This document shows, in pieces, positions 22,262-48,897 of a stretch of DNA of 64,000 bases. Numbering within the stretch: the first letter of the stretch is position 1; the number at the start of each line of letters is the position of its first letter. The position numbers and the translations under genes were made by a program. Under the pieces are notes generated by a model. That model did not search any database, was not told the origin of the DNA, and saw only the letters and a program-made list of their open reading frames with translations. This DNA is from Bacillota bacterium. Its GTDB lineage: Bacteria; Bacillota; Sulfobacillia; DUSP01; JBFMCS01. Location of the stretch: assembly GCA_040754315.1 (NCBI GenBank), contig JBFMCS010000049.1, positions 8,347-72,346 on the forward strand, read 5' to 3'.

Positions 22262-22265
22262 ACTG

Positions 22266-24311: not shown

Positions 24312-24355
24312 CCGCAAATTGCCACCGCAGGCGCGGTGGACATGAATCCAAGGGG

Positions 24356-25807: not shown

Positions 25808-25821
25808 AGGAGGAAGAACAT

Positions 25822-29153: not shown

Positions 29154-29736
29154 CGGGGTATCCACCGGTTCTCTGGGCATTGTTGCTAGGCCCCCATGAC
29201 CAACCCGGAAAACCCTTCCCCCGCTGACAGCCAAAACCCGTTGCCCCGGCGAATCCAGGCACTGCAATTCCCTGTCACCTGGACACTGTGTCACCGCTGG
29301 CCTCCAGATACCATGACAAGCCAAGCCCGGTCCCCTCAGAGCCAGGCCTCCCTCCACGTTCCGGTTGGGTTCCACTGGCCAGGCCATGTTCACCGGGTCG
29401 CCAACCCGGGAGAGAAATCTCCTGTAGCCGCAAGGGTTTCGGGAGATTTTACCCCTTGTTATCTGTTAAACTCAAGTTCTAACACGCTATCGGGTGGCAA
29501 TTTCCGATTGCACAGCCGCCTAGGGGGCGCCCTGCCTGTTGTTGAGCATCACCCTCAGCGTGTTCAGCATAGAATCCCGTCAAATGCGCCCATTGCGCGG
29601 AGGAAAAGTCGTGACGATTTGAGCCGTCCCTGCCGGCCAAGCTCTTTTACTGAAAAACGCATCGAATGAAATGGATTAAATCGTACACAATGGTACAATA
29701 AAGGCAAACACAACGCAAGCGAAAGGAGTGAATGAC

Positions 29737-29970
29737 ATGCGTGTGTCAGCAACCGAACTCAAGGTGAACATGAGCAAGTATATCGACCGCGCCGCCGTTG
29801 AGGACATCATCATCACCCGCAACGGAAAGGATGTAGCGCTTCTCACAAACGTCGAGGGCAAAAAGAAAGACGCGCTCAAATCCCTGCGCGGCATCATAAA
29901 GGGTGCCGAACTCACCCGCGACGAAATCCGCGAGGAAAGGTTGGGCAGGTACAGTGAAAATTCTTATTGA
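29737..29970 (+). CDS. Type II antitoxin, Phd/YefM-like
   Basis: About 78 aa. N-terminal MRVSATELKVNMSKYIDR resembles the Phd fold. Overlaps the downstream PIN toxin. Low-GC region. Confidence 0.65.
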   Translation: MRVSATELKVNMSKYIDRAAVEDIIITRNGKDVALLTNVEGKKKDALKSLRGIIKGAELTRDEIREERLGRYSENSY

Positions 29971-30364
29971 CACCAACGTCATCATTGATTACCTTGCCGA
30001 CCGGGCACCCTTCGCGGATCATTCCGAACAGGTGCTGGCTCTCTGCGAGAGGGGAGAGGTCGACGGTTTGGTTACGGCCAACGCCATTACCGACATCTAC
30101 TATGTGGTGCGCAAAGTGGCCGGGAGAGAAAAAACACTGGAAGCTATCCAGACGCTCTGTTCCATCTTGGATATTGCGGTCGTAGGGAAAGCCGATATCC
30201 TGAACGCGATGGAACTCGATATGCCCGATTATGAGGATGCTCTGGCCGCACAGTGTGCAAAGCGCATTAAGGCTGACTGCATCGTCACGCGCGATGTCAC
30301 CGGCTACGCCAACTCGCCGGTTCCAGCAAAAGAACCTGTCACCTTCCTAAGACAGTTTGAATAA
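29954..30364 (+). CDS. vapC: PIN-domain toxin (VapC-like)
   Basis: ILIDTNV ... TDIYY ... DYEDA ... TRD acidic quartet. GTG start overlapping the antitoxin by 17 nt. Confidence 0.7.
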   Translation: MKILIDTNVIIDYLADRAPFADHSEQVLALCERGEVDGLVTANAITDIYYVVRKVAGREKTLEAIQTLCSILDIAVVGKADILNAMELDMPDYEDALAAQCAKRIKADCIVTRDVTGYANSPVPAKEPVTFLRQFE

Positions 30365-30478
30365 CAAGTAACACCGACGCAAGGCGGCTTTTTTTATCCC
30401 TAGCCGATCTTAATCCCCCTAAAGGGCATAGGAATGGGCCCGAAGGGGCCCGTTTACAGGCATGAAGGTTTAGGAGTG

Positions 30479-31273
30479 CTAGGAATTCAGTAGACTACGG
30501 CGATAGGCGTCAATACTCTTCCACCAGCCAAGGTCCTCCAGTTGGTCCTTGATGCCTTTTCCGATATCCCCCAGCGACCACTGCCATTCACTGCGAGAAT
30601 GCTCTCCGGCCTCCAAATGGATCTCCACGAGCCGGAGTTTGTCCCAGTCCCTGAGCAGGGGGGCTACCTCCCTGTGATCCTGCCCCTTTCTGAGCTCGAG
30701 TTCGATCTTCCTCACAAGATAGTAGGTGAGGAAACAGATCAAGACATGGGCTCTTACGCGCCTTTTCTTGTAGTGGTAGATGGGCCGGATTCTGAGGTAA
30801 CTCTTGATGTTCCGGAAGGCCCGCTCCGCAAGCTGAAGTTGCATATAAGCCTCATGTACCTCCAGGGGACTGCACTCTTCCGGTGGAAGGGACGTCTGGA
30901 GCAAGTACTTACCCTCAAGGGACTCACGCAAGGCCACAGCCTTTTCGTCCACCTCAAACGACAGTTCAAAGAGCGCTTTGTCTTCGGGGGGATCCACAGG
31001 TTCAAGGGGACTGATTCTCACTTTGTAAAGCCCCGTCACCTCAGAGTCCTTCAAGAGGTTGTTTACCTTTTCCCTTAGACGTACCCATGAGTAGTACCTG
31101 CCCTTTGGGGCCGTCTGGGAAAGATGGCCAAGCTCCTCCTCGACTTCCTTCATGCTCTCCAGGGTGTGGATGAACTGATCTCCACGTGATGCCTGCCACC
31201 GGGCCTGGGGAGAGGGATGATCCGCAGGCTCTTTCCCCACATGCCCGAGCGTACATGGCGGGCATCCTTCCAT
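30479..31273 (-). pseudogene. IS4/IS1634-type DDE transposase, C-terminal fragment (N-terminus missing)
   Basis: C-terminal Y-x2-R-x3-E-x6-K signature (YMQLQLAERAFRNIKSYLRIRPIYH). No N-terminal DDE region follows upstream. Confidence 0.6.
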
Positions 31274-31289
31274 TCTCCGGCCCTAGCAG

Positions 31290-31740
31290 GTGCACGTGAT
31301 CGCCAGCCATGCCCAGCGCCACTTCCAGGTCATGACGGGAGTTCACCCTGTCCCCATCCACCGCCAGGATCACATCGGCCTGGCGGGGCGACCGCTCAAC
31401 TCCCGGCGGTTGCCCAGGTGGACCACGGCTTCGTGGCCGAGCGCCGAAAGGAGCACTGCCCCCCACTGGAGAACCGACTCCGTGAGGAGGCCACCGCCAA
31501 GCCCAAGAGCACGGACTTAAACGGCGAGATTGACCGCGCTCTTCAGGCATTTCCCTTCCTGGCAGTGTTACAGCCAGGTTACCGTATCCCAGGGCCGCGA
31601 CGACAGGAAAGACGAAAAAGGCGAGGCCGGGGGCAGCCAGGGGCACAACGGGGTGTGGCGCTATCAGGGGCCACCAGTCCGGCACCGGTATGGCACCTCC
31701 CGCCTCGGGCATGGTCCCCAGGATCAGCACAGTCAAGGGT
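31290..31740 (-). pseudogene. Remnant of a PDZ-domain (protease-like) gene, disrupted
   Basis: Minus-strand segment DVILAVDGDRVNSRHDLEVAL is PDZ-like. No intact gene is present; it abuts the transposase fragment. Confidence 0.3.
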
Positions 31741-31925
31741 ATGGGCTAGAAACGCTGCAGGGAAAACCCGTATACCACCTGCCCTGCCTTGTTTCGCACA
31801 TACAACGGGGTATTGCACGAAATCCTTCCAGAGGGGTCAAACGGCCTGGGCATGAGCCGCGGCGCGTTTTCTGCGTCGTCGGCTCCATGCCCTTGTTAGC
31901 CAGCTCCCGGTGCGCTTTCGCCGCA

Positions 31926-32513
31926 TTAACGACGAAACGTATACGTATAAGAGTTCAACTCCTCTTTAACACGCCTGTAATTATCTTGCAGGCCCGGCGA
32001 AGTCGATAACTGATCCAAATAACCAGCCGTGGCGGTTCTCAAATCTTCAATTAGGTACATCAAGGCCAGGTTCAATGTTTTGAACTCGCCGGCATCCTCA
32101 AGGGTGAAATGCTGGTCACGAGGCAAATGATCACGCCAATGGAGCAGCCACCGATAGGTTTTGCGAGTAACCTGATCAACGAGATATCGTGGCTGACTGG
32201 TACGCATCAGTTTGTGACGCCATACTTGGATGGCAAGGCTGTTTGCCTCGGTATTACGGCGGACGAAGGTGTCTAGGAACTCCGTCATTCGATCTGTCTG
32301 TCCCGTTGAAGATGCGTTTCCCTTCCAATATGCTGATAGGATGTCAAACCGTGCGAAGACAGCCATCATTAAGCCATAAAGGGTCTCTGGGAATCCATGC
32401 AGGGCCCCACTCCAGTTGGGCAGCACGAGCGTCGTGTAGATCTGAGACACCTCACGTTCAAGCGCGTCAACTCTGTCCATTTGGTGTTTTTGCTCTTGGT
32501 TGAGGTCAAACAT
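31926..32513 (-). CDS. Hypothetical protein (195 aa, orphan, low-GC)
   Basis: Uninterrupted ORF in AT-rich DNA. No family recognised. Confidence 0.45.
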   Translation of the reverse strand: MFDLNQEQKHQMDRVDALEREVSQIYTTLVLPNWSGALHGFPETLYGLMMAVFARFDILSAYWKGNASSTGQTDRMTEFLDTFVRRNTEANSLAIQVWRHKLMRTSQPRYLVDQVTRKTYRWLLHWRDHLPRDQHFTLEDAGEFKTLNLALMYLIEDLRTATAGYLDQLSTSPGLQDNYRRVKEELNSYTYTFRR

Positions 32514-32580
32514 TGTCGGTCACCACTGAGCGGCCTCGCCAGCGCACGAAAGCCACGATCAGCCCTCCTCATTTGGGGTA

Positions 32581-32598
32581 CTTGACACTTGTGTCAAG
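32581..32598. promoter_or_regulatory. Perfect 18-bp palindrome CTTGACACTTGTGTCAAG upstream of the orphan gene
   Basis: Self-complementary sequence carrying TTGACA on both strands, about 70 nt upstream of the 31926..32513 start. Confidence 0.4.
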
Positions 32599-33209
32599 TC
32601 TCGAGCTCAATAACACAAGATTATCGGAGCGTGTCTCACGAAGATCTGCCATGCGGGCGGATTTCCATGTTTGGCTGAAAATGAATATTGAAGGTTTATC
32701 TGTGATGGCAGCCGTATTGGTATGTGTGATTGGTTAACCAGTTTCTACCACCTCAGCAACCTGTCCTTCTGAAAGAAATGCTATTTCTATCCATGGATCC
32801 AGTCATTACTACCATCTACTGGGGCTTAACCGAATACCCATGAACCAGATCTTAACTGCCCCAAGCAAACCCCCTGCACTATGGCCCTGGTTGGGCTTTT
32901 TTCATCTCCCCGAAGGGGGGAAGTTGGGCTAGGGCTTGAGCGCAGGGTTCACCAGGATAACCCCCAGAACTCGTCAAGGACACCACTCGAGTCATCACCG
33001 GCCGGGCTCCGGGCGATTAACGCCCAGAGGGCGGCAAGGGAGACCTCCTTCCCCGGCCCCGAACCGGGAAGGGCGTCCCCCCTAAAGCACTCTTCGAGGC
33101 GGAGGCCGCCCTCACCAGCGGTCTCCGCCGCTGCCAGATGCGCCTTCCAGCCATCGGGCCCCGCCGGAATCCACTCCGCATATCCGGGCTCCCCCACCCG
33201 GGAGGCCTC

Positions 33210-34568
33210 TCACCCCAGGAGCTCCCAGGCGGCCTCGCGGAATACCTCGGTATGAAAGTCCACGTCCCCCCTTGACGTCACGGGGCACATGAGAGCCATG
33301 TTGTGAAAGGGCGTAAGGAGGATCCCCCTGTTGAGAGCGTACAGGTGCATGAAGCGGTCAAGGTTGCTGTCTCGTGCGGCTGCTGCCTCCCTCCCGTTTC
33401 TCGGGATGCCGGGCTGGAACCGGTATTCCGCCCGGCACCCCAGGCGAACGACGTGCCAGGGTGCCCCCGTCTCGCGGATGACCCCTTCAACGCCCTCGGT
33501 GAACCTCTCACCAAGGGCTATCATGTGGTGAAACGCCTCCTCCGTCAGGACCTCGGAGAGGGTTGCCTTGATGGATGCTATAGAGAGGGCGTTGCCCGAG
33601 AGCGTGCCCCCTATTCCCCCGGTGTCTGACGCATCAAGGATCTCCCCCCGCCTCTTCATCACCATCGAGGCTACCTCCTCGGTGAACCCGTAGGCTGCCG
33701 CGGGAACACCCCCCGCTATGGGCTTCCCGATGGTCACGAAATCCGGGCTGAGGCCGTGGGCAGCCGTGTACCCGCCGGGGCTGGCGCAGATCGTGTGCGT
33801 TTCGTCGATCACGAGGAGCGTCCCGTAGCGCCTGGTGAGCTCCCTAAGGGCATCGTGGTACCCAGGCTCCGGGAGGATTATTCCGATGTTGGTCATCGCG
33901 GGCTCAGCGAGGACGCACGCGACATCCCTATGGGAGAGGGCCTCTTCGAGCGCGTCCGTATCATTCCACTCGATTACCCTGGTGGTAACGGCCGGGTTGA
34001 CTGGGGGCCCCACGTTACCCTCCCTCGGGACAGGGACCCCGTCTTCCAGCGTGATCAAGGCCTCATCAACTGTGCCGTGATAACACCAGTTGTATACCAG
34101 GACCTTCGGGCGATGCGTTATCTCCCTGGCCATCCTCAACACAAAGCGGTTCGCATCAGTGGCCGTGAGGGCAAATTGCCAGTATGAGACCTTGAAGCGC
34201 CTCCCAAGCTCCTCCGCCACCCATATTGCGTCCTCCACGGGCAGCATGGCTGTAATGCCCTTTTTCGCCTGTCTTGCCACGGCCTCCACCGTTGCCGGGG
34301 GGGCGTGTCCCGTCATGGCGCCAGTGTCCCCAAGGCAGAGGTCTACGTAGGTATGGCCATCCACATCAGTCACCCGGGCACCGGTGGCCTCCTTTACGAA
34401 CACCGGGTAAGCCCCTGCCCACTGTGTCATCCAAGGCATGGGCACCCCGCCAAGGAGCGAGCCCCAGGCCCTCCGGAAGAGTCTCCCTGATTCCAGATGC
34501 TCTTTCTTAAACCTTTCTTCCTCGCGGGACAGCAGCCGTTCCAGGCGCGATGGCTTCACATCCCTCAC
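33210..34568 (-). CDS. Class-III (PLP fold type I) aminotransferase
   Basis: GSA-aminomutase / omega-transaminase-like with a PLP lysine region (TIGKPIAGG). GTG start overlapping the upstream stop. Confidence 0.75.
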   Translation of the reverse strand: MRDVKPSRLERLLSREEERFKKEHLESGRLFRRAWGSLLGGVPMPWMTQWAGAYPVFVKEATGARVTDVDGHTYVDLCLGDTGAMTGHAPPATVEAVARQAKKGITAMLPVEDAIWVAEELGRRFKVSYWQFALTATDANRFVLRMAREITHRPKVLVYNWCYHGTVDEALITLEDGVPVPREGNVGPPVNPAVTTRVIEWNDTDALEEALSHRDVACVLAEPAMTNIGIILPEPGYHDALRELTRRYGTLLVIDETHTICASPGGYTAAHGLSPDFVTIGKPIAGGVPAAAYGFTEEVASMVMKRRGEILDASDTGGIGGTLSGNALSIASIKATLSEVLTEEAFHHMIALGERFTEGVEGVIRETGAPWHVVRLGCRAEYRFQPGIPRNGREAAAARDSNLDRFMHLYALNRGILLTPFHNMALMCPVTSRGDVDFHTEVFREAAWELLG

Positions 34569-34572
34569 AGCG

Positions 34573-35376
34573 TCACCTCCCTGGGTTCTTCTCCACCAGG
34601 GCCCCGTAAGTCTCGGGCCTTCGCTTGGCCAGGTAGTCCAGGCCATCCCTCGACGCCTCGTTGGCGGCCAGGTCCACCCAGGCAAACCCGACGCATTCCT
34701 CGTACCCCAGGTCTAGGATGGTGCGCCCCAGGGGGTCCCTCACGCCGCTCCTTCCAAAGAACTTGTACTCCCCTGAGGCGCCCACCGTATTGCACACCGC
34801 CGTGTGAACGTGGTTTTCCATGGCCCTCGCCCTCATGTACACCTCCTGATAAGGCTCGAAGGGTACCATGTTTGCCGTGGGACATATGAGGATCTGGGCG
34901 CCCTTCAAGGCAAGGGTGCGCGCCACCTCCGGGAACTCCGAATCGAAGCAGATGAGAACGCCTACCCTGCCTACATCGAGGTCGAAAACGGGGTAGTCCC
35001 CGCCGGGCTCCACGTAAAGGCCCTCCTTCCCGAAAAGGTGTACCTTCCGGTACACGTGAGCTTTCCCGGTTGACCTCTCAACCACGGCTGCGGAGTTGTA
35101 CATCTTCCCGCCGGCCCCACGTTCGGCAAAGCCGAATACAAGGTTGATCCCCTCTTTCACCGCCAAGTCACCCATCGCCCGGACAAGGGGACCCTCCGGC
35201 GGTTCGGCCGTCCCGGCGAGGGCCTCCATGTCAAGGCCCTGGAGAAACATCTCCGGGAATACGAGGAGGCTCACCCCTGATACGCCGGCGGTCTTAGCCG
35301 CCTCCCCAGCCGCGGCCAGGTTCTTCTTAGGATCAGGGGACAATCTCAACTGGGCGAGTCCTATCTTAAACCTCAC
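34573..35376 (-). CDS. Carbon-nitrogen hydrolase family protein (nitrilase/amidase superfamily)
   Basis: E-K-C triad context (LLVFPEMF ... GVLICFD). Confidence 0.75.
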   Translation of the reverse strand: MRFKIGLAQLRLSPDPKKNLAAAGEAAKTAGVSGVSLLVFPEMFLQGLDMEALAGTAEPPEGPLVRAMGDLAVKEGINLVFGFAERGAGGKMYNSAAVVERSTGKAHVYRKVHLFGKEGLYVEPGGDYPVFDLDVGRVGVLICFDSEFPEVARTLALKGAQILICPTANMVPFEPYQEVYMRARAMENHVHTAVCNTVGASGEYKFFGRSGVRDPLGRTILDLGYEECVGFAWVDLAANEASRDGLDYLAKRRPETYGALVEKNPGR

Positions 35377-35415
35377 GGCAAAACCCTCCCCGGCACCGGC
35401 TTGGCGAAGGACCCC

Positions 35416-36258
35416 CTATTCGAGGAGCCTCCCGTAGGTGCTTGTCCTCCGGTCCCTGAAGTATGGCCACCACCTGCGTGCCTTCCTCACGCATTCCAGG
35501 TCTATCTCACCCATAACCACTTCGTCCCCATCCCGGGAGGACAGCACCGTCACCTCACCGAGGGGGTTTGCAAAGAAACTCCCCCCGAAGAACCGGATAT
35601 CTCCTTCCTGTCCCACCCGGTTGAGGACGCCCACCCAGAGAAGATTCATGCAGGCCTGAGCCCTGTTTGCCAGCGTCCACATCTCCTTGACACGTTCCCC
35701 GGGAACCTCGGGGTGGCTTGGGCCGCCGCCGATCGCCGAGGGGAAGAACACCATCTCCGCACCGTTCAGGGCAAGGCTCCTCCCGGTCTCCGGAAACCAC
35801 TGGTCCCAGCATATGCCAACCCCTATCCGGCCAAGGCGCGTCCGGAACACAGGGTACCCAAGGTCACCCGGCTTGAAGTAGAACTTCTCGCAGTAGCCTG
35901 GCTCGTCCGGTATGTGGTTCTTCCTGTAGAGCCCAAGGAGGCTCCCGGATTCGATGACAGCAGCAGTGTTGTAGAACAGCCCTTCCATGACCTTCTCAAA
36001 GAAGGGCACGATCAGCGTCACCCTCCGGCTTTGAGAAATGTCCTGCATGGTGCTTACGGTGGGGCCCGTAACAGGCTCTGCCATGTCGAAGGACTCGTGC
36101 TTCATCTCCTGCGGGAAATAGCGGCTGGAGAACACCTCCTGGAGACAGATGACCTCAGCCGAGCCCCCCACCGCATCGTCAATGAGAGAGGCCGCCTTGT
36201 CGACGTTGTGCTTTCTGGAGCCGGAACAGGCCATCTGAATCAAGGCAGCCCTGAACAA
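35416..36258 (-). CDS. Carbon-nitrogen hydrolase, N-carbamoylputrescine amidase (AguB)-like
   Basis: HIPDEPGYCEKFYFKPGD motif characteristic of AguB / beta-ureidopropionase-like amidases. GVGICWDQWFPE catalytic Cys. Confidence 0.7.
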   Translation of the reverse strand: MFRAALIQMACSGSRKHNVDKAASLIDDAVGGSAEVICLQEVFSSRYFPQEMKHESFDMAEPVTGPTVSTMQDISQSRRVTLIVPFFEKVMEGLFYNTAAVIESGSLLGLYRKNHIPDEPGYCEKFYFKPGDLGYPVFRTRLGRIGVGICWDQWFPETGRSLALNGAEMVFFPSAIGGGPSHPEVPGERVKEMWTLANRAQACMNLLWVGVLNRVGQEGDIRFFGGSFFANPLGEVTVLSSRDGDEVVMGEIDLECVRKARRWWPYFRDRRTSTYGRLLE

Positions 36259-36289
36259 TGTCTCTCACCCCCTACGGGAAGGCGTACCC

Positions 36290-36397
36290 CTATCGTTTCG
36301 ACTGCCGCCCGAGAAGCCTGTTGGCCGAGACCACAGCCACCACGATAGCCGTAAAGAAGCCGATGGAAAGAACCACCTGTACAGCAGTTTCCGACAT
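36290..36397 (-). CDS. Putative 35-38 aa single-TM membrane peptide between the hydrolase genes
   Basis: My own translation: M(TG)MSETAVQVVLSIGFFTAIVVAVVSANRLLGRQSKR. GAAAGGGG SD upstream. Not in the supplied track, which lists only ORFs of 60 aa or more. Confidence 0.35.
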   Translation of the reverse strand: MSETAVQVVLSIGFFTAIVVAVVSANRLLGRQSKR

Positions 36398-36414
36398 ACC
36401 TGTCATCCCCTTTC

Positions 36415-37953
36415 TCAGAGGCTGTATCTTTCAACGCCTCTTGCGAATGTCCTGAGCACCTTAATGGAATCTATGGCCTTTGGGTGGACTGACCTCGGGT
36501 CCAGATCCAGTACCACCAGGTCCGCCTGCTTTCCCGTCTCCATGGAGCCTTTCTGGATTTCCTCAAACCCAAACCTCGAGGCCTCAACGGTGTAGAGCCT
36601 CATCGCATCGTATACGGTGAGCGACTCCGTGGGAAGACTCCTGTGATTAACCGCCGACTGGATGTCAAAGAGCGGGTTAATGGGTGAGACGAATGCGTCT
36701 GAACCACCGGCCAAGCGGATCCCCGCCCTAAGCATCGTATTGTACAGGTGCACGCGGTTCATCGTCTCCGCCCCCAAGTGCTCCTCGTACTTGGACCCGA
36801 AGGTCCTCAGGTGGCTAGGTTGCATGGCAACGTGCACACCCAGCCGTGCGATCCTCCGGATCTGCTCGTGGGTGATGACCTCTGCATGTTCGATCCTGTG
36901 GCGGTGATCATAGCGCGGGCATTCCCTTAGCGCTCTCTCGTACGCCCTGAGAACCTGTTCCACAGCCCGGTCGCCGTCACAGTGTATGGCAATCTGGAGC
37001 CCCGCCCTGTGAGCCTTCGTGACGAAGTGTTCCATTTCCTCATCAGAGTAGTATAGGGAACCGTGTGTCCCGTCCGTGTAGGGGCTGGAAACCGCAGCCG
37101 TGTATGCCTCTATGGAGCCGTCCGCAGTGAGGCACCCCCCGATCCGCCCGAGCCCCCTTTCTAGAACCCTGTCAACATCCGTTGTCTGGTCCCAGAGGAT
37201 AAGGTCAATCTCACACGCGTCCTTGTTCTTGTATATGAAGTCTGAGTCAATATCCCCGAAGAAACCTCCGCCCTCAAGGGCATGAACGGTGGTTACCCCC
37301 TGCCGCAGGCACTCCTTCACAGCCAGGGAGACAGATTCCTCTCGCTGCTCCTCACTCACAAGTCTCGCGTTGGCCACCCTCGAAAAGGTGTGGTTAGCCT
37401 CGGCCCTCAGGACCCCGCTGAATTCCCCGGCTTCGTTCCTCCCGATACCCGGGGTGGAGGGATCAAGGTCCAGCCAGCGAAATGTGGCGCCGTTCGTCAG
37501 AGACAGGTGGCCGCTAAGCTGGGTTATCTTGAGAAGCCGCCCGGGTGCTGCCTGGTCAAGCTGCTCCTGCGTGGGGAACCCCTTTTCTTCCAGGTTCATC
37601 TCATCAAAGTACGCCATTATGAAGTTGCCCCTGAATTCGCGCGCCTCACGCGCCAGCTTTTCTAGAAGTCCCGGTATCGAGTCCGCGTTCACCAGATCGA
37701 TCGAAAGCATCTGGAGACCTGTTTGCACCAGGTGCACGTGGGTGTCTATGAAGCCTGGGAGGACCACGGCGCCCTCCAAGTCAATCACCCGCGTGCCCAG
37801 CCCCTGAAGCCCCTCAAGTTCATCGCGGGATCCCACCGCCTGGATGAGGCCATCCTTGACAGCAACGGCGTCACCGCGATCAGAGAACGGATCCTGGGCG
37901 AACGTGACTAGCCGGGCATTCGTCAATAGGAGGTCACTCTTTCCATCAGGCAT
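36415..37953 (-). CDS. Metal-dependent amidohydrolase (Amidohydro_3 / YtcJ-like)
   Basis: PGFIDTHVHL metal-binding start and a long amidohydrolase body. Confidence 0.75.
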   Translation of the reverse strand: MPDGKSDLLLTNARLVTFAQDPFSDRGDAVAVKDGLIQAVGSRDELEGLQGLGTRVIDLEGAVVLPGFIDTHVHLVQTGLQMLSIDLVNADSIPGLLEKLAREAREFRGNFIMAYFDEMNLEEKGFPTQEQLDQAAPGRLLKITQLSGHLSLTNGATFRWLDLDPSTPGIGRNEAGEFSGVLRAEANHTFSRVANARLVSEEQREESVSLAVKECLRQGVTTVHALEGGGFFGDIDSDFIYKNKDACEIDLILWDQTTDVDRVLERGLGRIGGCLTADGSIEAYTAAVSSPYTDGTHGSLYYSDEEMEHFVTKAHRAGLQIAIHCDGDRAVEQVLRAYERALRECPRYDHRHRIEHAEVITHEQIRRIARLGVHVAMQPSHLRTFGSKYEEHLGAETMNRVHLYNTMLRAGIRLAGGSDAFVSPINPLFDIQSAVNHRSLPTESLTVYDAMRLYTVEASRFGFEEIQKGSMETGKQADLVVLDLDPRSVHPKAIDSIKVLRTFARGVERYSL

Positions 37954-39460
37954 TTTGTACCTCCAGGCCGGGCTCAGACAGTATATCCGCATCCTTCATG
38001 GTCATTGTCGCAAAGACCTCATCGATGTCCTTGGGCGCTGGGAAGGCCAGCGCGAGGATGAGGTACACGGCGAAGTTCACTATCAATCCGAGAAGACCCG
38101 CCTGCAGCCCGGCGAACTGCGGGATATAAAATGGGGCTGTGAAGGAGTAGTACCCCGTAACGGCGAGCCCCGAAAGGAGCCCGCCCCAGGCAGCCACGGC
38201 GGTTCCCCGTTTCCAGAATATGCCCAGTATCAAGAGGGGGAAGATCTGTATGATCCCCTGGTACATTACCATCACAAGCTCAATGATGGTTGGCAAGGGA
38301 AGCGTTGCAACTATCACGCCGAGGCAGCCAACGATGAAGTTCATGATTAGCACCAGGCGGCCGAGCCTCCGGCTGTCCCAGGAAGGGAGGGCAAGGCTGA
38401 ACACGTCGTTTACCACGACGGAGCCCCAGGAACTCACCATTGAATCACACATTGAAAGTGCACCGTTTAGTATTAACACAGAAATGATAGCGATCGCCGC
38501 CGGGCCCATCGCTGAGATGATCTTTAGAAAAGAGTACTGGTGGTCATCCCCCAGCACCTCCTCGGGAAATGTGCCGAACCCAACTGCAAGCCAGATGATG
38601 AGGAGGCCGTACACAACCACGATAAAGGGCGTAACGAGGCTGGTCTTTTTCAGCTCACGCGAGCTGGAGGCCGCCATTATGCGGGCGAATAGGGATGGCC
38701 AGCAGTAGGCCCCTACCGAACCGGAGATGATCAGGGACACCCAGAAGAGGGGACCTGGAAGCGGGTCCCACCCAAGGCCGGGAAGGGCCAGGCTTTCCGG
38801 CCTCTTCTCTAGTATGGTGGCAAACATCGGCAGGAAGCCGCCGAAATAGTAGTATACCCCGCAAATCACAAGCAGCACACCACCAAATATCCACATCCAT
38901 CCCTGGTAGAAGTCGGCGATTATCACCGCCCTAGCGCCCGCAAATGTCACGTACGCTATGAAGAAGGCCCCCACCAAGATAACTCCTGCGGTTACCGGTA
39001 CGACCCCACGCGTGAGGGCGTAGATCACATATCCTGTCGCCAGGAGCTCAGCGACGATCCACGGGAACTCGATTATGACCGTACAGAGTGCAACGAAAAC
39101 CCTTAGGGGCCTGGAGCGATACCTGAGTTCGAAGAACTGCCCCTGTGTCCGAACGTTGTACCTCTTCCCTACCTTCCAGTAGCGCCCGCCTATGAGGTAG
39201 AGGAAGAACAGGCCCCCGAGAGTGTAAAACGCCACGTAACTTGCCACGACACCATTGTCTATTGCCATTTGGGTGAACCCCACGTACATGACGCCGCCAT
39301 ACCACGTCCCAACAATTGTCATCGTCATGAAAAGCCACCCGAAGCTCCGCCCCGCCACGGTTACCTCATCAAGGTCGATTTTGGGGAGAGGATGAGAGTA
39401 GACCACGTAAGCCATTCCCGCGAAGTAGGTGAGAACCATAAGTATGGGGAGCCACATCAT
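37946..39460 (-). CDS. Sodium:solute symporter family (SSF) transporter
   Basis: About 500 aa with 13 TM helices. SSF-type. Confidence 0.75.
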   Translation of the reverse strand: MMWLPILMVLTYFAGMAYVVYSHPLPKIDLDEVTVAGRSFGWLFMTMTIVGTWYGGVMYVGFTQMAIDNGVVASYVAFYTLGGLFFLYLIGGRYWKVGKRYNVRTQGQFFELRYRSRPLRVFVALCTVIIEFPWIVAELLATGYVIYALTRGVVPVTAGVILVGAFFIAYVTFAGARAVIIADFYQGWMWIFGGVLLVICGVYYYFGGFLPMFATILEKRPESLALPGLGWDPLPGPLFWVSLIISGSVGAYCWPSLFARIMAASSSRELKKTSLVTPFIVVVYGLLIIWLAVGFGTFPEEVLGDDHQYSFLKIISAMGPAAIAIISVLILNGALSMCDSMVSSWGSVVVNDVFSLALPSWDSRRLGRLVLIMNFIVGCLGVIVATLPLPTIIELVMVMYQGIIQIFPLLILGIFWKRGTAVAAWGGLLSGLAVTGYYSFTAPFYIPQFAGLQAGLLGLIVNFAVYLILALAFPAPKDIDEVFATMTMKDADILSEPGLEVQNA

Positions 39461-39503
39461 GTCAGGCCCCTTCCTTCATAGATATTTGCATCCAGGGGGC
39501 ACC

Positions 39504-39728
39504 CTAGAAGTCGTTGCGGATGTTCTGAATTACAAAGGCCACTGCCAGGAGCCCTGCCAGAAGAAGTGTGATGACGAGTTCCCAGAATATGAACCTCGGC
39601 AATCCTAAGATAGTGGGTAGAGGTGAGTTGAACGGTACAGCCAGAGCCACAAGATAAAGGACCGCTATAGCCCCTATGAGGCAGCCGTAAAGGACCTCCC
39701 CCCTAAGGGACTTAAGAAACCGTGCCAT
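39504..39728 (-). CDS. Small 2-TM membrane protein (DUF3311-like, SSF-transporter-associated)
   Basis: 74 aa, directly upstream of the symporter. Confidence 0.45.
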   Translation of the reverse strand: MARFLKSLRGEVLYGCLIGAIAVLYLVALAVPFNSPLPTILGLPRFIFWELVITLLLAGLLAVAFVIQNIRNDF

Positions 39729-40035
39729 TTCGATCTCCTCCTTGAGTTCCCGAAGTCGAAGGTGCCTCTGGGTCACTGGGGCCCGGGGCGTTCCCTAGCA
39801 GCCGAGCCGGGGTGTCCATCACCTCCTGTCATGCGATACATGACGCACCGGATGGCTGCCCCAAGACTCGTGCCCCAGCCTGCGGTTGTGGGATCCTGGG
39901 CGGAGCCACGCCGGTTCCTTGAATGTGGTACAACGCAAGAACTGTGCCTGGTGAGACTTGGCTGTTCAGGGGCCCTCAGTGTCCTTGGATTTATCAATCC
40001 AGATAACAAAAGCGCCGGCGTGCCCCCTTCCGGTG

Positions 40036-40053
40036 CTTATCGCGTTCGATAAG
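40036..40053. promoter_or_regulatory. 18-bp palindrome CTTATCGCGTTCGATAAG in the operon leader
   Basis: 7-bp arms with a 4-nt spacer, in the 460-nt region upstream of the minus-strand catabolic operon. Confidence 0.3.
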
Positions 40054-40237
40054 GATTATTGTTTTGAATAAACATCTAGCTCCGGCAACAGGAAGAACGC
40101 GAGAGCCCGGCGCCATGGAACCCTACAGGCTGACCACGGGAAAACAAACTCGCCGGAGCGATCGGGGCTTCAAGAGGGAACGCTGGCTTGGGGCGTTCCG
40201 GGGAGGGCCTGCAATTTGGGGGCTAAACCTGTGCCCC

Positions 40238-40807
40238 CTACAGGGTTACCGTGTTCCCCAGGCTCACCCTCTCACTGATCTCGTACATGTTGGTAACCCG
40301 GCCTACGGACAGCCTTTCCCTAAGCCCGTAGAAATCCAGGCAAGTACCGCAGGAGAGAACCTCAGCCCCGGCTTCCTCCAGGGCCTTCAGCACATCCACC
40401 TGCTCGGAGCCCTCTGTAGTAAGGAAAACACCCTCGTTCATGAAGATAAGGCAGCACGGAGGGTTCTCCAATTCCGTGAGGGTGTACAGGAAGGTCGCCA
40501 TGAGGGCCCGGCCCAGTTCTGGATCACCCTGGCCTACGCGGCGCCCAGTTACCAGGTAGACACACCCGCCGCCAGATGGCGAAACGGCGCAGGCGGTCTT
40601 GTCTATGAGAACCTTGAAGGCCTCCCCCTCGGGGTGTATCCTTGCGTCGAAACCGGCACGCTTGGCGTAGGCACCCACGTTCTCAGCGGCCTCCTTGGTG
40701 TCCACAAGGCACTCCAGGCGCCCGGAGTCAATGTCCTCCAGGGCCCTCTTCGTCTTCACCACTGGGAAAGGGCATGCCAGTCCCCGGCAATCCAGTAACA
40801 CAAGCAT
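40238..40807 (-). CDS. yedF: YedF-like protein (TusA-like CPxP domain fused to a DsrE/DsrF-like domain)
   Basis: N-terminal LDCRGLACPFPVVK TusA motif. The C-terminal half is DsrE-like. Confidence 0.6.
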   Translation of the reverse strand: MLVLLDCRGLACPFPVVKTKRALEDIDSGRLECLVDTKEAAENVGAYAKRAGFDARIHPEGEAFKVLIDKTACAVSPSGGGCVYLVTGRRVGQGDPELGRALMATFLYTLTELENPPCCLIFMNEGVFLTTEGSEQVDVLKALEEAGAEVLSCGTCLDFYGLRERLSVGRVTNMYEISERVSLGNTVTL

Positions 40808-40949: not shown

Positions 40950-42434
40950 GTGCGCCTGCGCACGCAGCACTCAGCCATCTTGGTGACGATACTTGTGATG
41001 TGCGCCTGGGCACTGGCCGGGTGTGCCCAGGACCCCAGGGCCGGTGAACCCAGGGGGAGGCCTGGGGGGCTCGCCAGCGAATGGTGCCTCATCCAGGAGG
41101 CCATGGGCCTTGAGGTTCAGGATGCCCGTATCCTGGAGATGCAGCTGTCCGTGGACTATGATACCCAAGACATAAAGGCTGCTGCCATCGCCTTCTACGT
41201 TCCAGGTGATGGCGGCAGCGTTCACTTCGCCCAGAGGCTCCTGGGGGAGGCAGCCTACCGGATCACCTCCTCCCGGCCCTCGTACCCCATGGATCCTGGG
41301 GAAATGGTACCATTGGATGATCTCATCGCCCAGGTCGACCTTGCCGGCCTTGATGCCCTGGTATACCACGCCGGTGAGTACTCCTGGCTTGAGGTGTCCC
41401 TAGTGGAGGAGACCGGTCAGGTCTTGGGGATTGAGCCTGGCAGGACCTGGTTCCTCCTTGAGGACGGGATAGCCGAAGAACTCAAAGACACCGAGGTGGC
41501 CGTGGTCTCGGGGCGGCTGGTGTACCTCTACACCGCCCCGGTAGGGGATCGTTCCGGAGACACCGGCCAGCCGAAGCGCCGGGGCTATCTCCTTACTGGG
41601 CTGGGGGGTACGGTGTCGAGGGTGACGTTGGAACCCCCGGACCTCCAGGCGGGGGAGGAGTGGATCACCAGCAAGCTCGCGGACCTGGACGGCGACGGGT
41701 TAGGTGAAGTCATCCACCTCGTGGGTACGAGGAGCGAGGAACACCTTCCCGCGCCTGACCGGAAGTGGCTCCTGGTAGGGAGCGGCAGCGAGGCGCTCAG
41801 GCTGGAGGTGCCCAGTGGGGACACTCAGTATGGGACCCACTTCGAGCTCAGGGATCTAACCGGGGACGGCTGCCCGGAGATGCTCTTCTACGAGTACATA
41901 GGGGGCAGCGGCAACATAGTGGACCTGAACGTGTTCTCCCTTAGGAACGGAGGGCTTTGGCCCCTTTTTGTCGCGGCCGACCATCACAATATCCCCGGGA
42001 TCCATGTGGAGTACCTTGGGGATAACATGGCCAGCCTGTACCTGCCTTCACTGGGCCTGGCGTGGGTGTTTCCCCTTTGCGGATCCTACCAGGGAAGCAT
42101 TGTCTCCCCGCAGTTTCACCCAGACTGGGTTGACCCCTTCTCCGACTACGACCTGGTGGACCTGGATGGTGACGGTGCGGTTGAGATCATCGGCTACCAG
42201 AGGGTGTGCGGCTCCGCCCACGTGGACATCATCGCCGATCTCCGCCAGGTGTTCTCCTGGAATGGGGAGGCCTTTGTGCTCCAGGATGTGCTCCTAAGCA
42301 CCCCCGGCTGGGGAGGGGAGTTGATCGAGCCCTTCGTTCACCCGCCGGTGAGGTTTGTGTTGCCCGGGACCACCGGTACCAGTATAATGTTTGTAAGAGG
42401 ACAACCGAATACAGGCCCCACGGGAACCTCGTGA
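40950..42434 (+). CDS. Lipoprotein with FG-GAP/VCBS-like DxDGDG repeats
   Basis: Signal peptide LVMCAWALAGC. Repeated DLDGDG / DLTGDG motifs. Confidence 0.5.
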   Translation: MRLRTQHSAILVTILVMCAWALAGCAQDPRAGEPRGRPGGLASEWCLIQEAMGLEVQDARILEMQLSVDYDTQDIKAAAIAFYVPGDGGSVHFAQRLLGEAAYRITSSRPSYPMDPGEMVPLDDLIAQVDLAGLDALVYHAGEYSWLEVSLVEETGQVLGIEPGRTWFLLEDGIAEELKDTEVAVVSGRLVYLYTAPVGDRSGDTGQPKRRGYLLTGLGGTVSRVTLEPPDLQAGEEWITSKLADLDGDGLGEVIHLVGTRSEEHLPAPDRKWLLVGSGSEALRLEVPSGDTQYGTHFELRDLTGDGCPEMLFYEYIGGSGNIVDLNVFSLRNGGLWPLFVAADHHNIPGIHVEYLGDNMASLYLPSLGLAWVFPLCGSYQGSIVSPQFHPDWVDPFSDYDLVDLDGDGAVEIIGYQRVCGSAHVDIIADLRQVFSWNGEAFVLQDVLLSTPGWGGELIEPFVHPPVRFVLPGTTGTSIMFVRGQPNTGPTGTS

Positions 42435-42660
42435 GAGGGAAGAGGGAATCGGGTGCGAATCCCGAGCGGTCCCGCCACTGTAACCGGGGAGAGAGCCCGC
42501 GCTGATCCACTGTCCTGGATGGGATGGGAAGGAGCGGGTCATCCATGAGCCGGAAGCCAGGAGACCTGCCTGTGGCGGTGCGTACGATACCCCTTCGATG
42601 GAAAGAGCGGTGTACGTGAGGCTTAGTTGATAGGGCCTTCTACCATAGGGGTAGAAGGCC
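42435..42660 (+). ncRNA. Cobalamin riboswitch (aptamer about 42440-42580) with expression-platform terminator hairpin (42624-42651)
   Basis: Conserved GGTGCGAATCC ... GCCACTG elements and B12-box GCCGGAAGCCAGGAGACCTGCC. 10-bp hairpin GGCCTTCTAC-cataggg-GTAGAAGGCC followed by TTGAAGTTT. Confidence 0.85.
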
Positions 42661-42686
42661 TTGAAGTTTCCCGGGGAGGTGGGAGA

Positions 42687-44090
42687 ATGCTGAGGGCTCC
42701 ACGACTGGTAGTGGCAGGGACCCACAGCGGGGTGGGCAAGACCACGGTGGCGACAGGCCTCATGGCGGCGCTCTCCAGGAGGGGCCACGCCGTCCAGGGC
42801 TTCAAGGTTGGCCCCGACTACATTGATCCTGCGTTTCACGCCTCTGCCAGCGGGAGTCCATCACGGAACCTGGACCCGTGGCTAACTGGAGAGGACGGCG
42901 TCCTGGGGATCTTCACCTCCCGGGCCAAGGAGATCTCGGTGATCGAAGGGGTGATGGGACTGTTCGATGGCGGTCCCCGGCCAGAGGGCGGTTCAGCCCT
43001 GGCACCCGGCGGGGGATGGGGGAGTACAGCCCATGTGGCCATGATGCTCAAGGCCCCTGTGTTACTTGTCCTAGACGCAGCAGCCCTGGCCAGGAGCGCA
43101 GCTGCAATGGTCAAAGGCTACCTAACCTTCGAGCCTGGCCTTCATGTCTCGGGGTGTATTGTAAACAAGGTATCCGGCCCGGGCCACATCAGGTCCCTGA
43201 AGCGCCACATAGAGGGGGAGGCAGGGGTGCCAGTGGTGGGGGCGATCCCGGCCAGCGCGGGGCTACGACTGCCCGAACGCCACCTGGGCCTCGTGCCAGC
43301 CAGGGAGACGGAGGCCCTGGCCGAGGTCATCCACCACATGGGCCAGGTTATTGAGGAACACGTTGACCTGGAAGCCCTGTGGGACCTGGCCAGTGCCGCG
43401 CCCCCGCTGCCCAGGCCAGCACTTCCGCAACCCTCCAGGTTCCCCGGGGTACGAGTAGGAGTGGCCATGGACCAGGCATTTCACTTCTACTACCAGGATG
43501 CCCTGGACCTCTTGGAGAGCATGGGGGCGGAGATTCGCCTCTTTAGCCCGCTGGAGGACCGGTCGCTGCCTGCCGTGGATGGCATCATCATCGGAGGAGG
43601 CTTTCCCGAGGTGTTCCTGGAGCCCCTTTCCGCCAACAAAGGGCTCATGGAGGAGATTGTGTCCAGGGTCAAGGAGGGTATGCCCCTCTACGCCGAGTGT
43701 GGTGGCCTCATGTACCTGTGCCGTGAGGTAGATGACCTCGACGGCCGGTCCTATCCCATGGCCGGCCTGGTGCCCGCCCGGGCTGTCATGACCCAGGGCT
43801 TGGCGGGGTTCGGCTACGTCACCGCTCTTCTTGCCAGGGACTCCATACTCGGCGGCGCTGGTGATAAGGTCCGGGGGCATGAGTTTCACTACTCACGCCT
43901 GGTGCCCCTGGGAGACCTGGGGGTACAGCCCTATCTAGTATCCTGGGGCGTGGACGAAGAGGGATGGCCCGAGGGGTACCAGTTCCGGAACGCCCTGTGC
44001 TCCTATGTTCACATTCATCTCTTGGGAAACCCCCGGGCGGCCCAGCGCTTCCTGGGTGCCTGCATGAGGTTTCGGATGGGTGAGGCCTAG
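42687..44090 (+). CDS. cbiA: Cobyrinate a,c-diamide synthase
   Basis: VAGTHSGVGKTTV P-loop and a C-terminal glutamine amidotransferase domain. ATG at 42687 after GGAGGTGGGAG. Confidence 0.85.
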   Translation: MLRAPRLVVAGTHSGVGKTTVATGLMAALSRRGHAVQGFKVGPDYIDPAFHASASGSPSRNLDPWLTGEDGVLGIFTSRAKEISVIEGVMGLFDGGPRPEGGSALAPGGGWGSTAHVAMMLKAPVLLVLDAAALARSAAAMVKGYLTFEPGLHVSGCIVNKVSGPGHIRSLKRHIEGEAGVPVVGAIPASAGLRLPERHLGLVPARETEALAEVIHHMGQVIEEHVDLEALWDLASAAPPLPRPALPQPSRFPGVRVGVAMDQAFHFYYQDALDLLESMGAEIRLFSPLEDRSLPAVDGIIIGGGFPEVFLEPLSANKGLMEEIVSRVKEGMPLYAECGGLMYLCREVDDLDGRSYPMAGLVPARAVMTQGLAGFGYVTALLARDSILGGAGDKVRGHEFHYSRLVPLGDLGVQPYLVSWGVDEEGWPEGYQFRNALCSYVHIHLLGNPRAAQRFLGACMRFRMGEA

Positions 44091-44142
44091 GGGCGTGAAT
44101 TCCAGCGGCCGGCGTGAGCCCCGCCGCGAAAGGGGAAGCGGC

Positions 44143-44664
44143 ATGGACAGGCAGGGTCTCGTGATGATATTCACTGGGGACGGCAAGGGCAAGACCACCG
44201 CCGCGGTGGGGCTTGGGGTGAGGGCAGCCGGGCATGACAGGCGGGTCCTGATGATACAGTTCCTGAAGGGCTCAGGCAGGGACTACGGAGAGGCGAGGGC
44301 GCTGCAGTCACTCCCATCATTCAGGGTGGCTAGGTATGGGCAAGGCTTTGTCCTCGGTGATCCCGATGAGGCTCACATCCGCAGGGCTCGGGAGGGGCTA
44401 GCCAGGGCCCGGGAGGCCATGGCTGCCAGGGAGTGCGACCTTCTCATCCTGGATGAGATCAATGTGGCCATCGCATGCAGGCTGGTGAGGCTGGAGGAGG
44501 TCCTGGACCTCCTGGCGGGAAGGCCCCAGGACATGGATGTGGTACTGACTGGAAGAGGAGCACCAAGGGCCCTCATGGACCAGGCCCACATGGTCAGCGA
44601 TGTCCAGGAGGTGAAGCACCACTACAGGACGGGGGTCCAGGCGCAGGCAGGGGTGGAGTTCTGA
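44143..44664 (+). CDS. cobO: Cob(I)yrinic acid a,c-diamide adenosyltransferase (CobO/BtuR)
   Basis: FTGDGKGKTTAA P-loop and IQFLKG motif. Confidence 0.85.
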   Translation: MDRQGLVMIFTGDGKGKTTAAVGLGVRAAGHDRRVLMIQFLKGSGRDYGEARALQSLPSFRVARYGQGFVLGDPDEAHIRRAREGLARAREAMAARECDLLILDEINVAIACRLVRLEEVLDLLAGRPQDMDVVLTGRGAPRALMDQAHMVSDVQEVKHHYRTGVQAQAGVEF

Positions 44665-48111: not shown

Positions 48112-48321
48112 TCATCGCGTATACTTCAACAGTTTGTAGACCATCCAGATTGCCGACACGACAAAGACAATCCAGATCAGCCAGATAAACCTGGAGAAGC
48201 ACTCAGCAAAATAGGTGCCAAGCAGGATACCGAAGGTGATCATCAGGAATTTGAAGAAACCGTAGTCGACGACAGTGTATTTCTTGGCGGCACTCATAAC
48301 AATTCCAACCGGATTAAGCAT
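48112..48321 (-). CDS. Small hydrophobic 2-TM protein (69 aa) in an AT-rich patch
   Basis: GAGGAGG SD 8 nt upstream of the ATG. Strongly hydrophobic. No family recognised. Confidence 0.4.
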   Translation of the reverse strand: MLNPVGIVMSAAKKYTVVDYGFFKFLMITFGILLGTYFAECFSRFIWLIWIVFVVSAIWMVYKLLKYTR

Positions 48322-48883: not shown

Positions 48884-48897
48884 ATTATTAACATGAA

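Follow-up and report, generated by a model that had tools for sequence, protein, structure and literature searches.

What a compact set of seven genes for a transporter, three hydrolases, a transaminase and two very small membrane proteins does for an uncultured member of the Bacillota, and whether the smallest of these, an open reading frame (ORF) of just 35 codons, is a gene at all, are the questions raised by a 64,000-nt stretch of contig JBFMCS010000049.1 (assembly GCA_040754315.1, positions 8,347 to 72,346), hereafter the window. Seven co-directional, tightly packed ORFs run here on the minus strand from position 39728 to position 33210 (Table 1). The operon which an earlier note on this DNA had described is confirmed, all seven of its ORFs being present at or close to the positions proposed. 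The amidohydrolase, the first carbon-nitrogen hydrolase (CN1) and the transaminase are each identical to an NCBI protein of an uncultured 'MAG: Bacillota bacterium', and a 4-kb JGI metagenome contig (L001), the only one recovered by a look-up with the amidohydrolase, carries the same sequence; an exact look-up of CN1 had given none. With modest confidence, the operon is proposed to import an N-carbamoylated or N-acylated small aliphatic amine, to strip off the blocking groups and to transaminate the amine so freed. The 35-codon micro-ORF, judging by its pattern of codon substitution, is a genuine, unannotated and conserved micro-protein under protein-level purifying selection.

The proposal builds on what was observed: which genes are present and to which families they belong, the catalytic residues and translation signals they have, the selection acting on the micro-ORF, which is purifying, and the reappearance of the gene set elsewhere. 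The divergent Na+/solute symporter would import the compound, probably together with a DUF3311-like two-helix partner and the 35-aa single-helix micro-protein, and the YtcJ-type binuclear-metal amidohydrolase would cleave an N-acyl (or amidine-type) bond. CN1, a Cys-Glu-Lys hydrolase, would remove an N-carbamoyl group as CO2 and NH3, a second carbon-nitrogen hydrolase (CN2) would hydrolyse a further amide, and the HemL-like PRK07046 transaminase would convert the freed primary amine into an aldehyde or ketone. What we infer is in which order these steps take place, on which substrate, and that the two small proteins serve as transporter subunits. The best guess for the substrates is N-carbamoyl- or N-acyl-putrescine-type diamine derivatives, which are favoured because the substrate channel of CN1 is conserved, a near-canonical AguB occurs in one of the related clusters described below (L097-type) and a gene of the acetylpolyamine-amidohydrolase family neighbours a CN1 relative in another (L006).

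An ORF of 35 codons is unremarkable by itself, since 12 kb of this region contain 135 ORFs of 30 aa or more, and as its length is uninformative in DNA of 60% GC, conservation was taken as the test. The peptide quoted in the earlier note agrees exactly with our own translation, and its start at 36397 has a Shine-Dalgarno (SD) sequence, GAAAGGGG, 9 nt upstream, while the alternative ATG at 36406 directly abuts it. The Logan contig L002 carries a symporter and an amidohydrolase followed at once by a 38-aa gene (MSGTTFQVILTVCYFAAIIVAVVSANRLLGKQKKREES). In a codon-by-codon comparison of the window with L002, the micro-ORFs share 66% amino acid identity with proportions of non-synonymous (pN) and synonymous (pS) differences of 0.21 and 0.85, against 0.19 and 0.80 for the symporters (70% identity) and 0.22 and 0.82 for the amidohydrolases (67% identity). 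The synonymous sites of the micro-ORF are saturated in this comparison (62% nucleotide identity), yet its pN/pS is no different from that of its two neighbours. The core AVVSANRLLG is invariant, but nine of its ten codons carry synonymous differences, and the other five frames all carry stops in L002.

A more distant version was found in the lineage represented by L095 and L097-L099, where a 37-aa gene (MEGNIVAQVIIFISFLISITLAIVIGSRTLRKPKNNH) with an AGGAG SD lies 12 nt after the stop codon of the orthologous symporter and ahead of an AguB gene. All versions consist of a single hydrophobic helix (19-residue Kyte-Doolittle maximum 2.4-2.7; 2.5 in the window) followed by a basic tail. Aligned with the window peptide, that of L095 gives a local score of 45 versus 20 ± 4 for shuffles (p = 1.5e-4, or p = 4e-3 for shuffles preserving the head, helix and tail segments). 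It is also the best non-self match (E = 0.09) of a profile made from the window and L002 among 14,288 small ORFs (1.6 Mb, six frames), and the reverse profile search again places the window and L002 on top, so that homology of the 37-aa peptide to the window micro-ORF is probable. No micro-ORF was found among these small ORFs in any of the remaining fetched loci. The family is considered narrow because, when 1.84 billion representatives were searched in full with HMMER, the L002 orthologue alone came back, apart from a match, judged spurious, to a short segment within a protein of 2115 aa. Neither the window peptide nor that of L002 is present in a collection of 15 billion proteins, and a Pfam search with the micro-ORF at E <= 10 returned nothing.

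The opposite view, that the micro-ORF yields no functional protein and is either a chance ORF or a translated spacer whose translation tunes CN1 expression, would be in keeping with the abundance of ORFs of this length in such GC-rich DNA, with the single clear orthologue among the representatives, with the borderline similarity to L095 and with its absence from one related lineage (L005/L096). It is considered very unlikely in the light of the pN/pS shared with the flanking genes at saturated synonymous sites, the recoded core and the five closed frames, as well as the likeness of all three versions in length, one-helix architecture, basic C-terminal tail and SD, and their reciprocal best matching. 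Moreover, L002 keeps its micro-ORF, symporter and amidohydrolase intact though the CN1 gene downstream (L002 3380-4318) lacks its 5' third and contains frameshifts and stops, being either a decaying gene or an assembly error. The micro-ORF of the earlier note is thus upheld, with its SD in place, and is missing from public annotation.

As a separate observation, stable GC-rich hairpins lie behind the micro-ORF in L002 (3400-3430, z = -3.3 versus shuffles) and L095 (2983-3008, z = -3.5), which may be intra-operon attenuators dividing the transporter genes from the enzyme genes; no equivalent was seen after the window micro-ORF (z = 0.5).

With corrected gene starts, the intergenic distances, 5' to 3' along the operon, are 43, -8, 17, 31, 39 and 4 nt. 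The sole true overlap, of 8 nt, is that between the symporter stop and the amidohydrolase start (ATGCCTGA), so the tight packing reported earlier stands while the 'several' overlapping start and stop codons are reduced to one. The transaminase begins at GTG 34568 (GTG 34559 in the NCBI record) and not at TTG 34685, and its overlap with CN2 is therefore an artefact of choosing the longest ORF. SD sequences were seen ahead of the operon genes when start codons were inspected in the sequence, that of the symporter not in detail, and no internal promoter or strong terminator was found inside the operon. It is bordered upstream by a 509-nt leader followed by a TusA-DsrE fusion gene, and downstream by a stretch of lower GC content with a DDE-transposase fragment and a PIN gene.

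Table 1 Features of the operon and its leader in the window, in the order of transcription (SD, Shine-Dalgarno sequence; PLP, pyridoxal phosphate)
Feature	Coordinates	Strand	Remarks
Inverted repeat CTTATCG cgtt CGATAAG	40036..40053	.	7-bp arms, 4-nt spacer; within the 509-nt leader
Candidate sigma-54-like -24/-12 element	39934..39949	-	aGGCACagttcTTGCg (GGCAC-N5-TTGC); about 205 nt upstream of the first start codon
DUF3311-like two-helix membrane protein, 74 aa	39504..39728	-	ATG 39728; SD AAGGAGGAG 8 nt upstream
Na+/solute symporter (SSF), 504 aa	37946..39460	-	PF00474
YtcJ-type Amidohydro_3 amidohydrolase, 512 aa	36415..37953	-	ATG; SD GGAGGT; PF07969
Micro-ORF, single transmembrane helix, 35 aa	36290..36397	-	ATG; SD GAAAGGGG 9 nt upstream
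CN1, AguB-like carbon-nitrogen hydrolase (putative N-carbamoyl-amine amidase), 280 aa	35416..36258	-	TTG; SD GGGGGTGAG
CN2, Nit/archaeal-'nitrilase'-like carbon-nitrogen hydrolase, 267 aa	34573..35376	-	GTG; SD GGGGAGGG
Class-III HemL-like PRK07046 PLP transaminase, ~450 aa	33210..34568	-	GTG; SD GGGAGGTGA, overlapping the CN2 stop

The substrate range suggested for the operon depends largely on CN1, which matches PF00795 (CN_hydrolase) with 177.9 bits and contains exactly the AguB-like motif quoted in the earlier note, HIPDEPGYCEKFYFKPGD. The AguB-like assignment made there is supported, as the best match in the PDB is 5h8i, the Medicago N-carbamoylputrescine amidohydrolase (MtCPA; 210 bits), versus 97-109 bits for beta-ureidopropionases and 81-91 bits for D-carbamoylases, and the best NCBIfam model is TIGR03381. 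The catalytic residues E41, K113, C150 and E124 align with E48, K121, C158 and E132 of MtCPA. In the structure of the Medicago enzyme, a narrow hydrophobic channel selects an unbranched chain (PMC4812014), and the channel residues Y54, P125, Y130, W159, W162, A183, I184 and W277 (MtCPA numbering) are all kept in CN1.

The TIGR03381 score of CN1, 278 bits, does not reach the equivalog cut-off of 410.25; the AguB proteins linked to agmatine deiminase (AguA) at five bacterial genome loci score just 279-321 bits, and for that reason the model fails to separate the CN1 clade from true AguB. In a neighbour-joining tree (without bootstrap), CN1 groups with the two L005 copies, L006/7, L008/9 and L034, apart from the clade of the other AguB proteins of the genome scan and as a sister clade to AguA-linked AguB, and none of the members of its group has AguA nearby. 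The similar TIGR03381 scores would also suit a different view, namely that the genes are merely adjacent and serve no single pathway, with CN1 being a biosynthetic AguB for putrescine. This is thought extremely improbable: the genes are 4-43 nt apart or, in one case, overlap, neither a promoter nor a strong terminator was found inside the operon, the same gene combination recurs in other lineages, both AguA and arginine decarboxylase are lacking among the operon neighbours, and the presence of a transporter and a transaminase points to catabolism.

The survey of gene neighbourhoods which the earlier note had suggested gave a positive result: the gene set, comprising the small protein, symporter, YtcJ-type amidohydrolase, AguB-like hydrolase and class-III transaminase, recurs in rearranged form in two other lineages. 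In the first of them, the JGI contig L005 carries genes for an aldehyde:ferredoxin oxidoreductase (AFOR), an Amidohydro_3 protein (40% identity), two CN1-like proteins (50% and 55%), a third CN hydrolase and an ArgD/GabT-type class-III transaminase, together with a 77-aa small protein and a symporter (41%), followed by glycerate kinase and enolase. The second, a third lineage when the window is counted, was found by scanning metagenomes with the symporter alignment and is represented by five contigs from JGI, ENA and Logan assemblies (L095/L097-L099). The L097-type cluster includes genes for EamA, a GntE/HemL-like transaminase, a 75-aa DUF3311-like protein, an SSF symporter (49%), the 37-aa micro-ORF, AguB and Amidohydro_3 (26%), its AguB being near-canonical with 409.2 bits versus the TIGR03381 cut-off of 410.25, and AFOR, a saccharopine-dehydrogenase-fold gene and a divergent BTAD/MalT-type regulator are found in its vicinity.

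Looser relatives were also seen. L092 has, on one strand and within about 9 kb, an SSF gene without detectable similarity to that of the window, two Amidohydro_3 genes (one 41%) and a transaminase (73%), the last preceded by a BTAD regulator and a radical-SAM gene. Two members of the CN1 clade have as neighbour a deacylase-type enzyme of another kind, that of L006 lying beside a Hist_deacetyl gene (acetylpolyamine-amidohydrolase family) and an ABC transporter, and that of L008 beside a PRK09061 amidohydrolase, transaminases, AFOR and an Asp/Glu/hydantoin racemase-family gene. What recurs is a transporter together with a metal- or zinc-dependent hydrolase of deacylase type, a decarbamoylase of the AguB clade and a transaminase of the omega type, in many cases with AFOR as well. 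The transaminases are non-orthologous between clusters, which argues that this step is needed rather than inherited by chance. AFOR genes lie by three of the related clusters (L097 16730-20114; L005 5358-7124; L008 6560-8314 and 14919-16673), and together with the saccharopine-dehydrogenase-fold gene they would be in keeping with the aldehyde product of the transaminase being oxidised anaerobically; neither AFOR nor a saccharopine-dehydrogenase-fold gene was found near the window operon.

The amidohydrolase belongs to PF07969 (273.9 bits versus a gathering cut-off of 29.7), and its HxH...H...H...D ligands H72, H74, H324, H356 and D419 are invariant among 32 homologues; the alignment revealed no bridging carboxylated lysine. 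A fold search with its AF2 model (pLDDT 94.8) gave close matches only to the uncharacterised Pyrococcus structures 3icj and 3igh (TM 0.77-0.84, 24-25% identity), and a single-protein scan of genome contigs revealed no relative. The characterised YtcJ-type enzymes found in a literature search are N-acyl-amine deacylases: epsilon-lysine acylases release lysine from an N-acyl conjugate (PMC10699109), and the Bilophila N-acyl-taurine/metallo bile-salt hydrolase BwBSH1 releases taurine, which fits the supply of taurine for Bilophila metabolism (PMC13081902). The 'N-acylated amine' of the earlier note fits this, N-acyl-amine deacylase activity being known for distant members of the family only.

The absence of an agmatine deiminase, mentioned in the earlier note, holds for the entire 64-kb window (best tblastn E = 0.35) and extends to the related clusters, where no AguA was detected within 10 kb of the AguB-like or near-canonical AguB genes. 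For comparison, a scan of species-representative genomes yielded 80 AguB-like loci at 41-47% identity, and at 68 of these an agmatine deiminase (PAD_porph, 390.8 bits) lies within 3 kb; only four show, within the fetched flanks, even a distant match (<=34%) to any of the three proteins symporter, YtcJ-type amidohydrolase and transaminase. This contrast invites a reading as agmatine catabolism, in which the symporter would import agmatine, the YtcJ-type enzyme would replace AguA, CN1 would release putrescine and the transaminase would act as a putrescine aminotransferase. The amidohydrolase superfamily does include amidine and guanidine deaminases, and the AFOR and saccharopine-dehydrogenase-fold genes near the L097-type cluster are compatible with such a route. 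Every route to N-carbamoylputrescine described so far employs agmatine deiminase (PMC12283126), and since AguA is absent here, the YtcJ-type enzyme was considered as the source of the carbamoyl intermediate. The agmatine reading is nevertheless unlikely, for the YtcJ-type enzymes characterised so far in the literature found cleave N-acyl amides and not guanidines (PMC10699109, PMC13081902), AguA could be encoded in another part of each genome, the two cluster types have YtcJ-type proteins with only 26% identity to each other, and CN2 is left unexplained. A more general, so far undescribed AguA-free route by way of N-carbamoylputrescine-type intermediates, with the YtcJ-type protein being either a guanidino-amine/agmatine deiminase or an N-acyl-polyamine deacylase that supplies an AguB-clade enzyme, and with a three-component SSF importer in which the micro-protein is obligatory, is regarded as a possibility of rather low probability.

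The transaminase matches Aminotran_3 with 140.6 bits and passes the NCBIfam PRK07046 model (NF005453; 656 bits, cut-off 425), and it does not reach the HemL equivalog TIGR00713 (224.6 bits versus 527.3). Its PLP-lysine motif is GKPIAGG, and its match to PDB 5ykr ('probable aminotransferase') amounts to 490 bits (E = 7e-146), against 106-125 bits for the beta-transaminases 2yku and 4ao9. Hundreds of homologues at 65-80% identity occur in many phyla. A HemL paralogue in P. aeruginosa, PA5523, is described as being of undetermined role (PMC7857532), and spermine-NONOate induces it along with the glutamine-synthetase-like PA5522 (PMC13024080). PA5523 and Rv3329 were considered for the identity of 5ykr, and Rv3329 was discarded as a different, Tpa-like enzyme; a synonymy of PA5522 with pauA7 is contradicted by PMC6529630, which gives PA5508. 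In an Acidiferrales metagenome-assembled genome (L094 6324-9380), a 67% identical transaminase homologue comes right after Peptidase_S58 (DmpA/beta-aminopeptidase family) and rhodanese genes, a context hinting at beta-amino acids as possible substrates of some PRK07046 enzymes.

CN2 matches PF00795 with 163.8 bits, and its best relatives in the PDB are the Pyrococcus 'nitrilase' structures 3ivz and 1j31 (135 bits), with Nit2 at 94 bits. It reaches neither the archaeal nitrilase model NF040852 (145 bits versus 500) nor that of deaminated glutathione amidase, NF033621 (95.5 bits versus 355), and is placed on sequence similarity in the Nit/archaeal 'nitrilase' branch.

Catabolism of a cyclic ureide or ureido acid was the other possibility to be weighed, in which the amidohydrolase would open a ring, CN1 would decarbamoylate the resulting N-carbamoyl (beta-)amino acid and the transaminase would take the product. 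CN1 does match beta-ureidopropionases and D-carbamoylases (81-109 bits), the transaminase is related to beta-transaminases, the CN1-clade member of L008 lies beside an amidohydrolase of 460 aa and a racemase gene of the Asp/Glu/hydantoin family, and both CN1-like copies of L005 have basic residues at the position equivalent to the amine-binding Glu187 of MtCPA. On the other hand, CN1 is far closer to N-carbamoylputrescine amidohydrolase than to beta-ureidopropionase, the L097-type cluster holds a near-canonical AguB, and the amidohydrolase scores only about 36 bits, by N-terminal matches alone, on the dihydropyrimidinase and D-hydantoinase models TIGR02033 and PRK13404 (cut-offs 393 and 647). 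Dihydropyrimidine dehydrogenase was not noticed among the neighbours scanned, no dedicated search for it having been run. The beta-ureido or pyrimidine alternative offered in the earlier note is accordingly the weaker one, and the ureide reading as a whole is held to be improbable.

Uptake, which the preferred reading of the operon requires, is assigned to the symporter, a full-length match to PF00474 (102.6 bits versus a gathering cut-off of 22.8). It represents a divergent SSF subfamily, far from the PanF, MctP and VC_2705 equivalogs (the best, PanF TIGR02119, with 84 bits versus a cut-off of 328), and no relative was found among PDB sequences at E <= 0.001. Its orthologues are 70% (L002), 49% (L095) and 41% (L005) identical. 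Pfam and NCBIfam support all the family calls of the earlier note but that of the first gene, which is DUF3311-like (PF11755) weakly, with E = 0.02 and 15.4 bits under a gathering cut-off of 30. This 74-aa protein, the start of which agrees with that of NCBI MEW6082170.1 (locus tag AB1576_10420, hypothetical protein), has two hydrophobic segments and also matches DUF997 weakly; its L097 orthologue has a precomputed 'weak' DUF3311 match. In L002, L005 and L095/L097, too, a small homologous gene comes immediately before that of the orthologous symporter, and the 74-aa protein is likely to be the symporter's small partner. Both small membrane proteins are most simply seen as accessory subunits of the symporter; the micro-ORF sits 12 nt behind the symporter in one lineage and stays intact in L002.

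Several observations weigh against the import, deblocking and transamination of a putrescine-type compound as proposed here. The amine-binding Glu187 of MtCPA is replaced by Gly in CN1 (AIGGGPSH); this loss is not decisive because AguA-linked bacterial AguB proteins are also without Glu at this position (AIGWHP), and Glu187 was accordingly dropped as a specificity marker. With the exception of the uninformative PRK07046 subfamily, no enzyme of the operon reaches a substrate-specific equivalog, and close homologues of the transaminase (65-80% identity) are found in varied gene contexts. No gene of the other clusters clearly corresponds to CN2, which best matches archaeal 'nitrilase' and Nit2-type proteins, an outcome for the hydrolases which the earlier note had named as speaking against its reading. 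The L097-type cluster is only distantly similar to that of the window in its amidohydrolase (26%), CN hydrolase (38%) and transaminase (30%), and the compounds handled by the two may be related without being the same. A search of the L005/L096 lineage did not find the micro-ORF, and nothing in evidence points to a source of any N-carbamoyl intermediate. Taken together, the logic of uptake, de-amidation and transamination set out in the earlier note is supported, and the reading given there as a whole is supported in part, with the 'nitrilase'-like CN2, the operator and the multiple overlaps counting against it.

The operator in question was an 18-bp palindrome in the leader, which is present in the form of an inverted repeat with 7-bp arms. 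The window has 1.47 such repeats per kb, and at least one turns up in 28% of shuffled leaders, so this is the background frequency and the operator reading was rejected. None of the related contigs reaches into the leader. No sigma-70-like promoter was found in the 32.5-41 kb region. The candidate sigma-54-like element lies 86 nt downstream of the inverted repeat, and this geometry would suit an enhancer-binding protein; sigma-54-like matches number 28 window-wide against 31 expected by chance, and the only sigma-54 activator seen in the window is encoded 18 kb away (20450-22261), beside an MttB locus. The single perfect match in the window to TGGCAC-N5-TTGCW is at 48205-48220 (-), near two tRNA genes (48802-48984).

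Some further features of the window were recorded. The GAF-PAS-AAA sigma-54 activator heads a plus-strand region (20450-26469) in which it is followed by genes for an MttB-family methyltransferase (24356-25807) and a corrinoid protein (25666-26469), with a sigma-54-like sequence, TGGTACggttcTTGCA, at 24296-24311. The MttB ORF of 483 aa is uninterrupted, and since it has no in-frame stop in spite of an Rfam PYLIS_3 match within it (25328-25427, 65.7 bits), the protein looks like a non-pyrrolysine homologue. A second MttB-family gene (56548-58047, -) adjoins an oligopeptide-type ABC transporter (ATPase, permease, SBP_bac_5) in the region 56548-64000, and a cobalamin riboswitch (115 bits) is located directly ahead of genes for a CobB/CobQ-type amidotransferase and a corrinoid adenosyltransferase (42396-44664, +). 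The TusA-DsrE fusion that precedes the operon leader, a YedF-like carrier of sulfur or selenium, is encoded on the operon strand (40238-40807, -). Immediately downstream of the operon, the stretch 29500-33200 (GC 0.50-0.55 versus about 0.60), with its PIN-domain gene, DDE-transposase fragment and overlapping ORFs without family matches, may be mobile-element debris.

The enzymology met with here is familiar, being a variation on known catabolic logic which does not overturn current knowledge. What the locus adds is a recurring uncharacterised module of SSF symporter, small partner or partners, YtcJ-type amidohydrolase, AguB-clade hydrolase and class-III transaminase in anaerobe metagenomes, and a sister clade of AguB without linkage to agmatine deiminase, the members of which are candidates for a missing activity in polyamine and nitrogen-cycling research. 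It also offers a testable functional context for YtcJ-like amidohydrolases, PRK07046 HemL paralogues and DUF3311-like symporter partners, as well as a well-supported conserved micro-protein of fewer than 40 aa which the collection of public annotation searched here does not contain.

Among the known systems closest to the operon is the agmatine deiminase pathway AguA/AguB (N-carbamoylputrescine amidohydrolase, EC 3.5.1.53), with which CN1 shares its fold, the Glu-Lys-Cys(+Glu) set and the channel residues. It differs from that biosynthetic pair in the lack of an AguA partner in the window and the related clusters, in the sister-clade position of CN1, its sub-cut-off score (278 versus 410) and its Gly for Glu187, and in being embedded in an operon for uptake and transamination. 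Clusters for reductive pyrimidine or hydantoin catabolism have the same logic of a metal amidohydrolase, a CN-hydrolase decarbamoylase and a transaminase, but the window amidohydrolase is no dihydropyrimidinase or hydantoinase and CN1 is nearer to AguB than to beta-ureidopropionase or D-carbamoylase. With the YtcJ-like proteins (COG1574/cd01300/PF07969), including the epsilon-lysine acylases and BwBSH1, the amidohydrolase has the Pfam family and the HxH...H...H...D ligand pattern in common; it differs in its length of 512 rather than 945 aa and in being cytoplasmic (no signal peptide noted). To the PRK07046 HemL-like transaminases, with 5ykr and P. aeruginosa HemL paralogues such as PA5523, the window enzyme is tied by its subfamily score, its match to 5ykr and its PLP-lysine motif, and it is not a HemL equivalog (225 versus 527). 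Finally, as in the SSF systems with small partners (DUF3311, or DUF997/YhdT with PanF), a small two-helix gene lies directly upstream of the SSF gene, but the window protein is under the Pfam cut-offs and the window adds a second small protein, the single-helix peptide of 35 aa.

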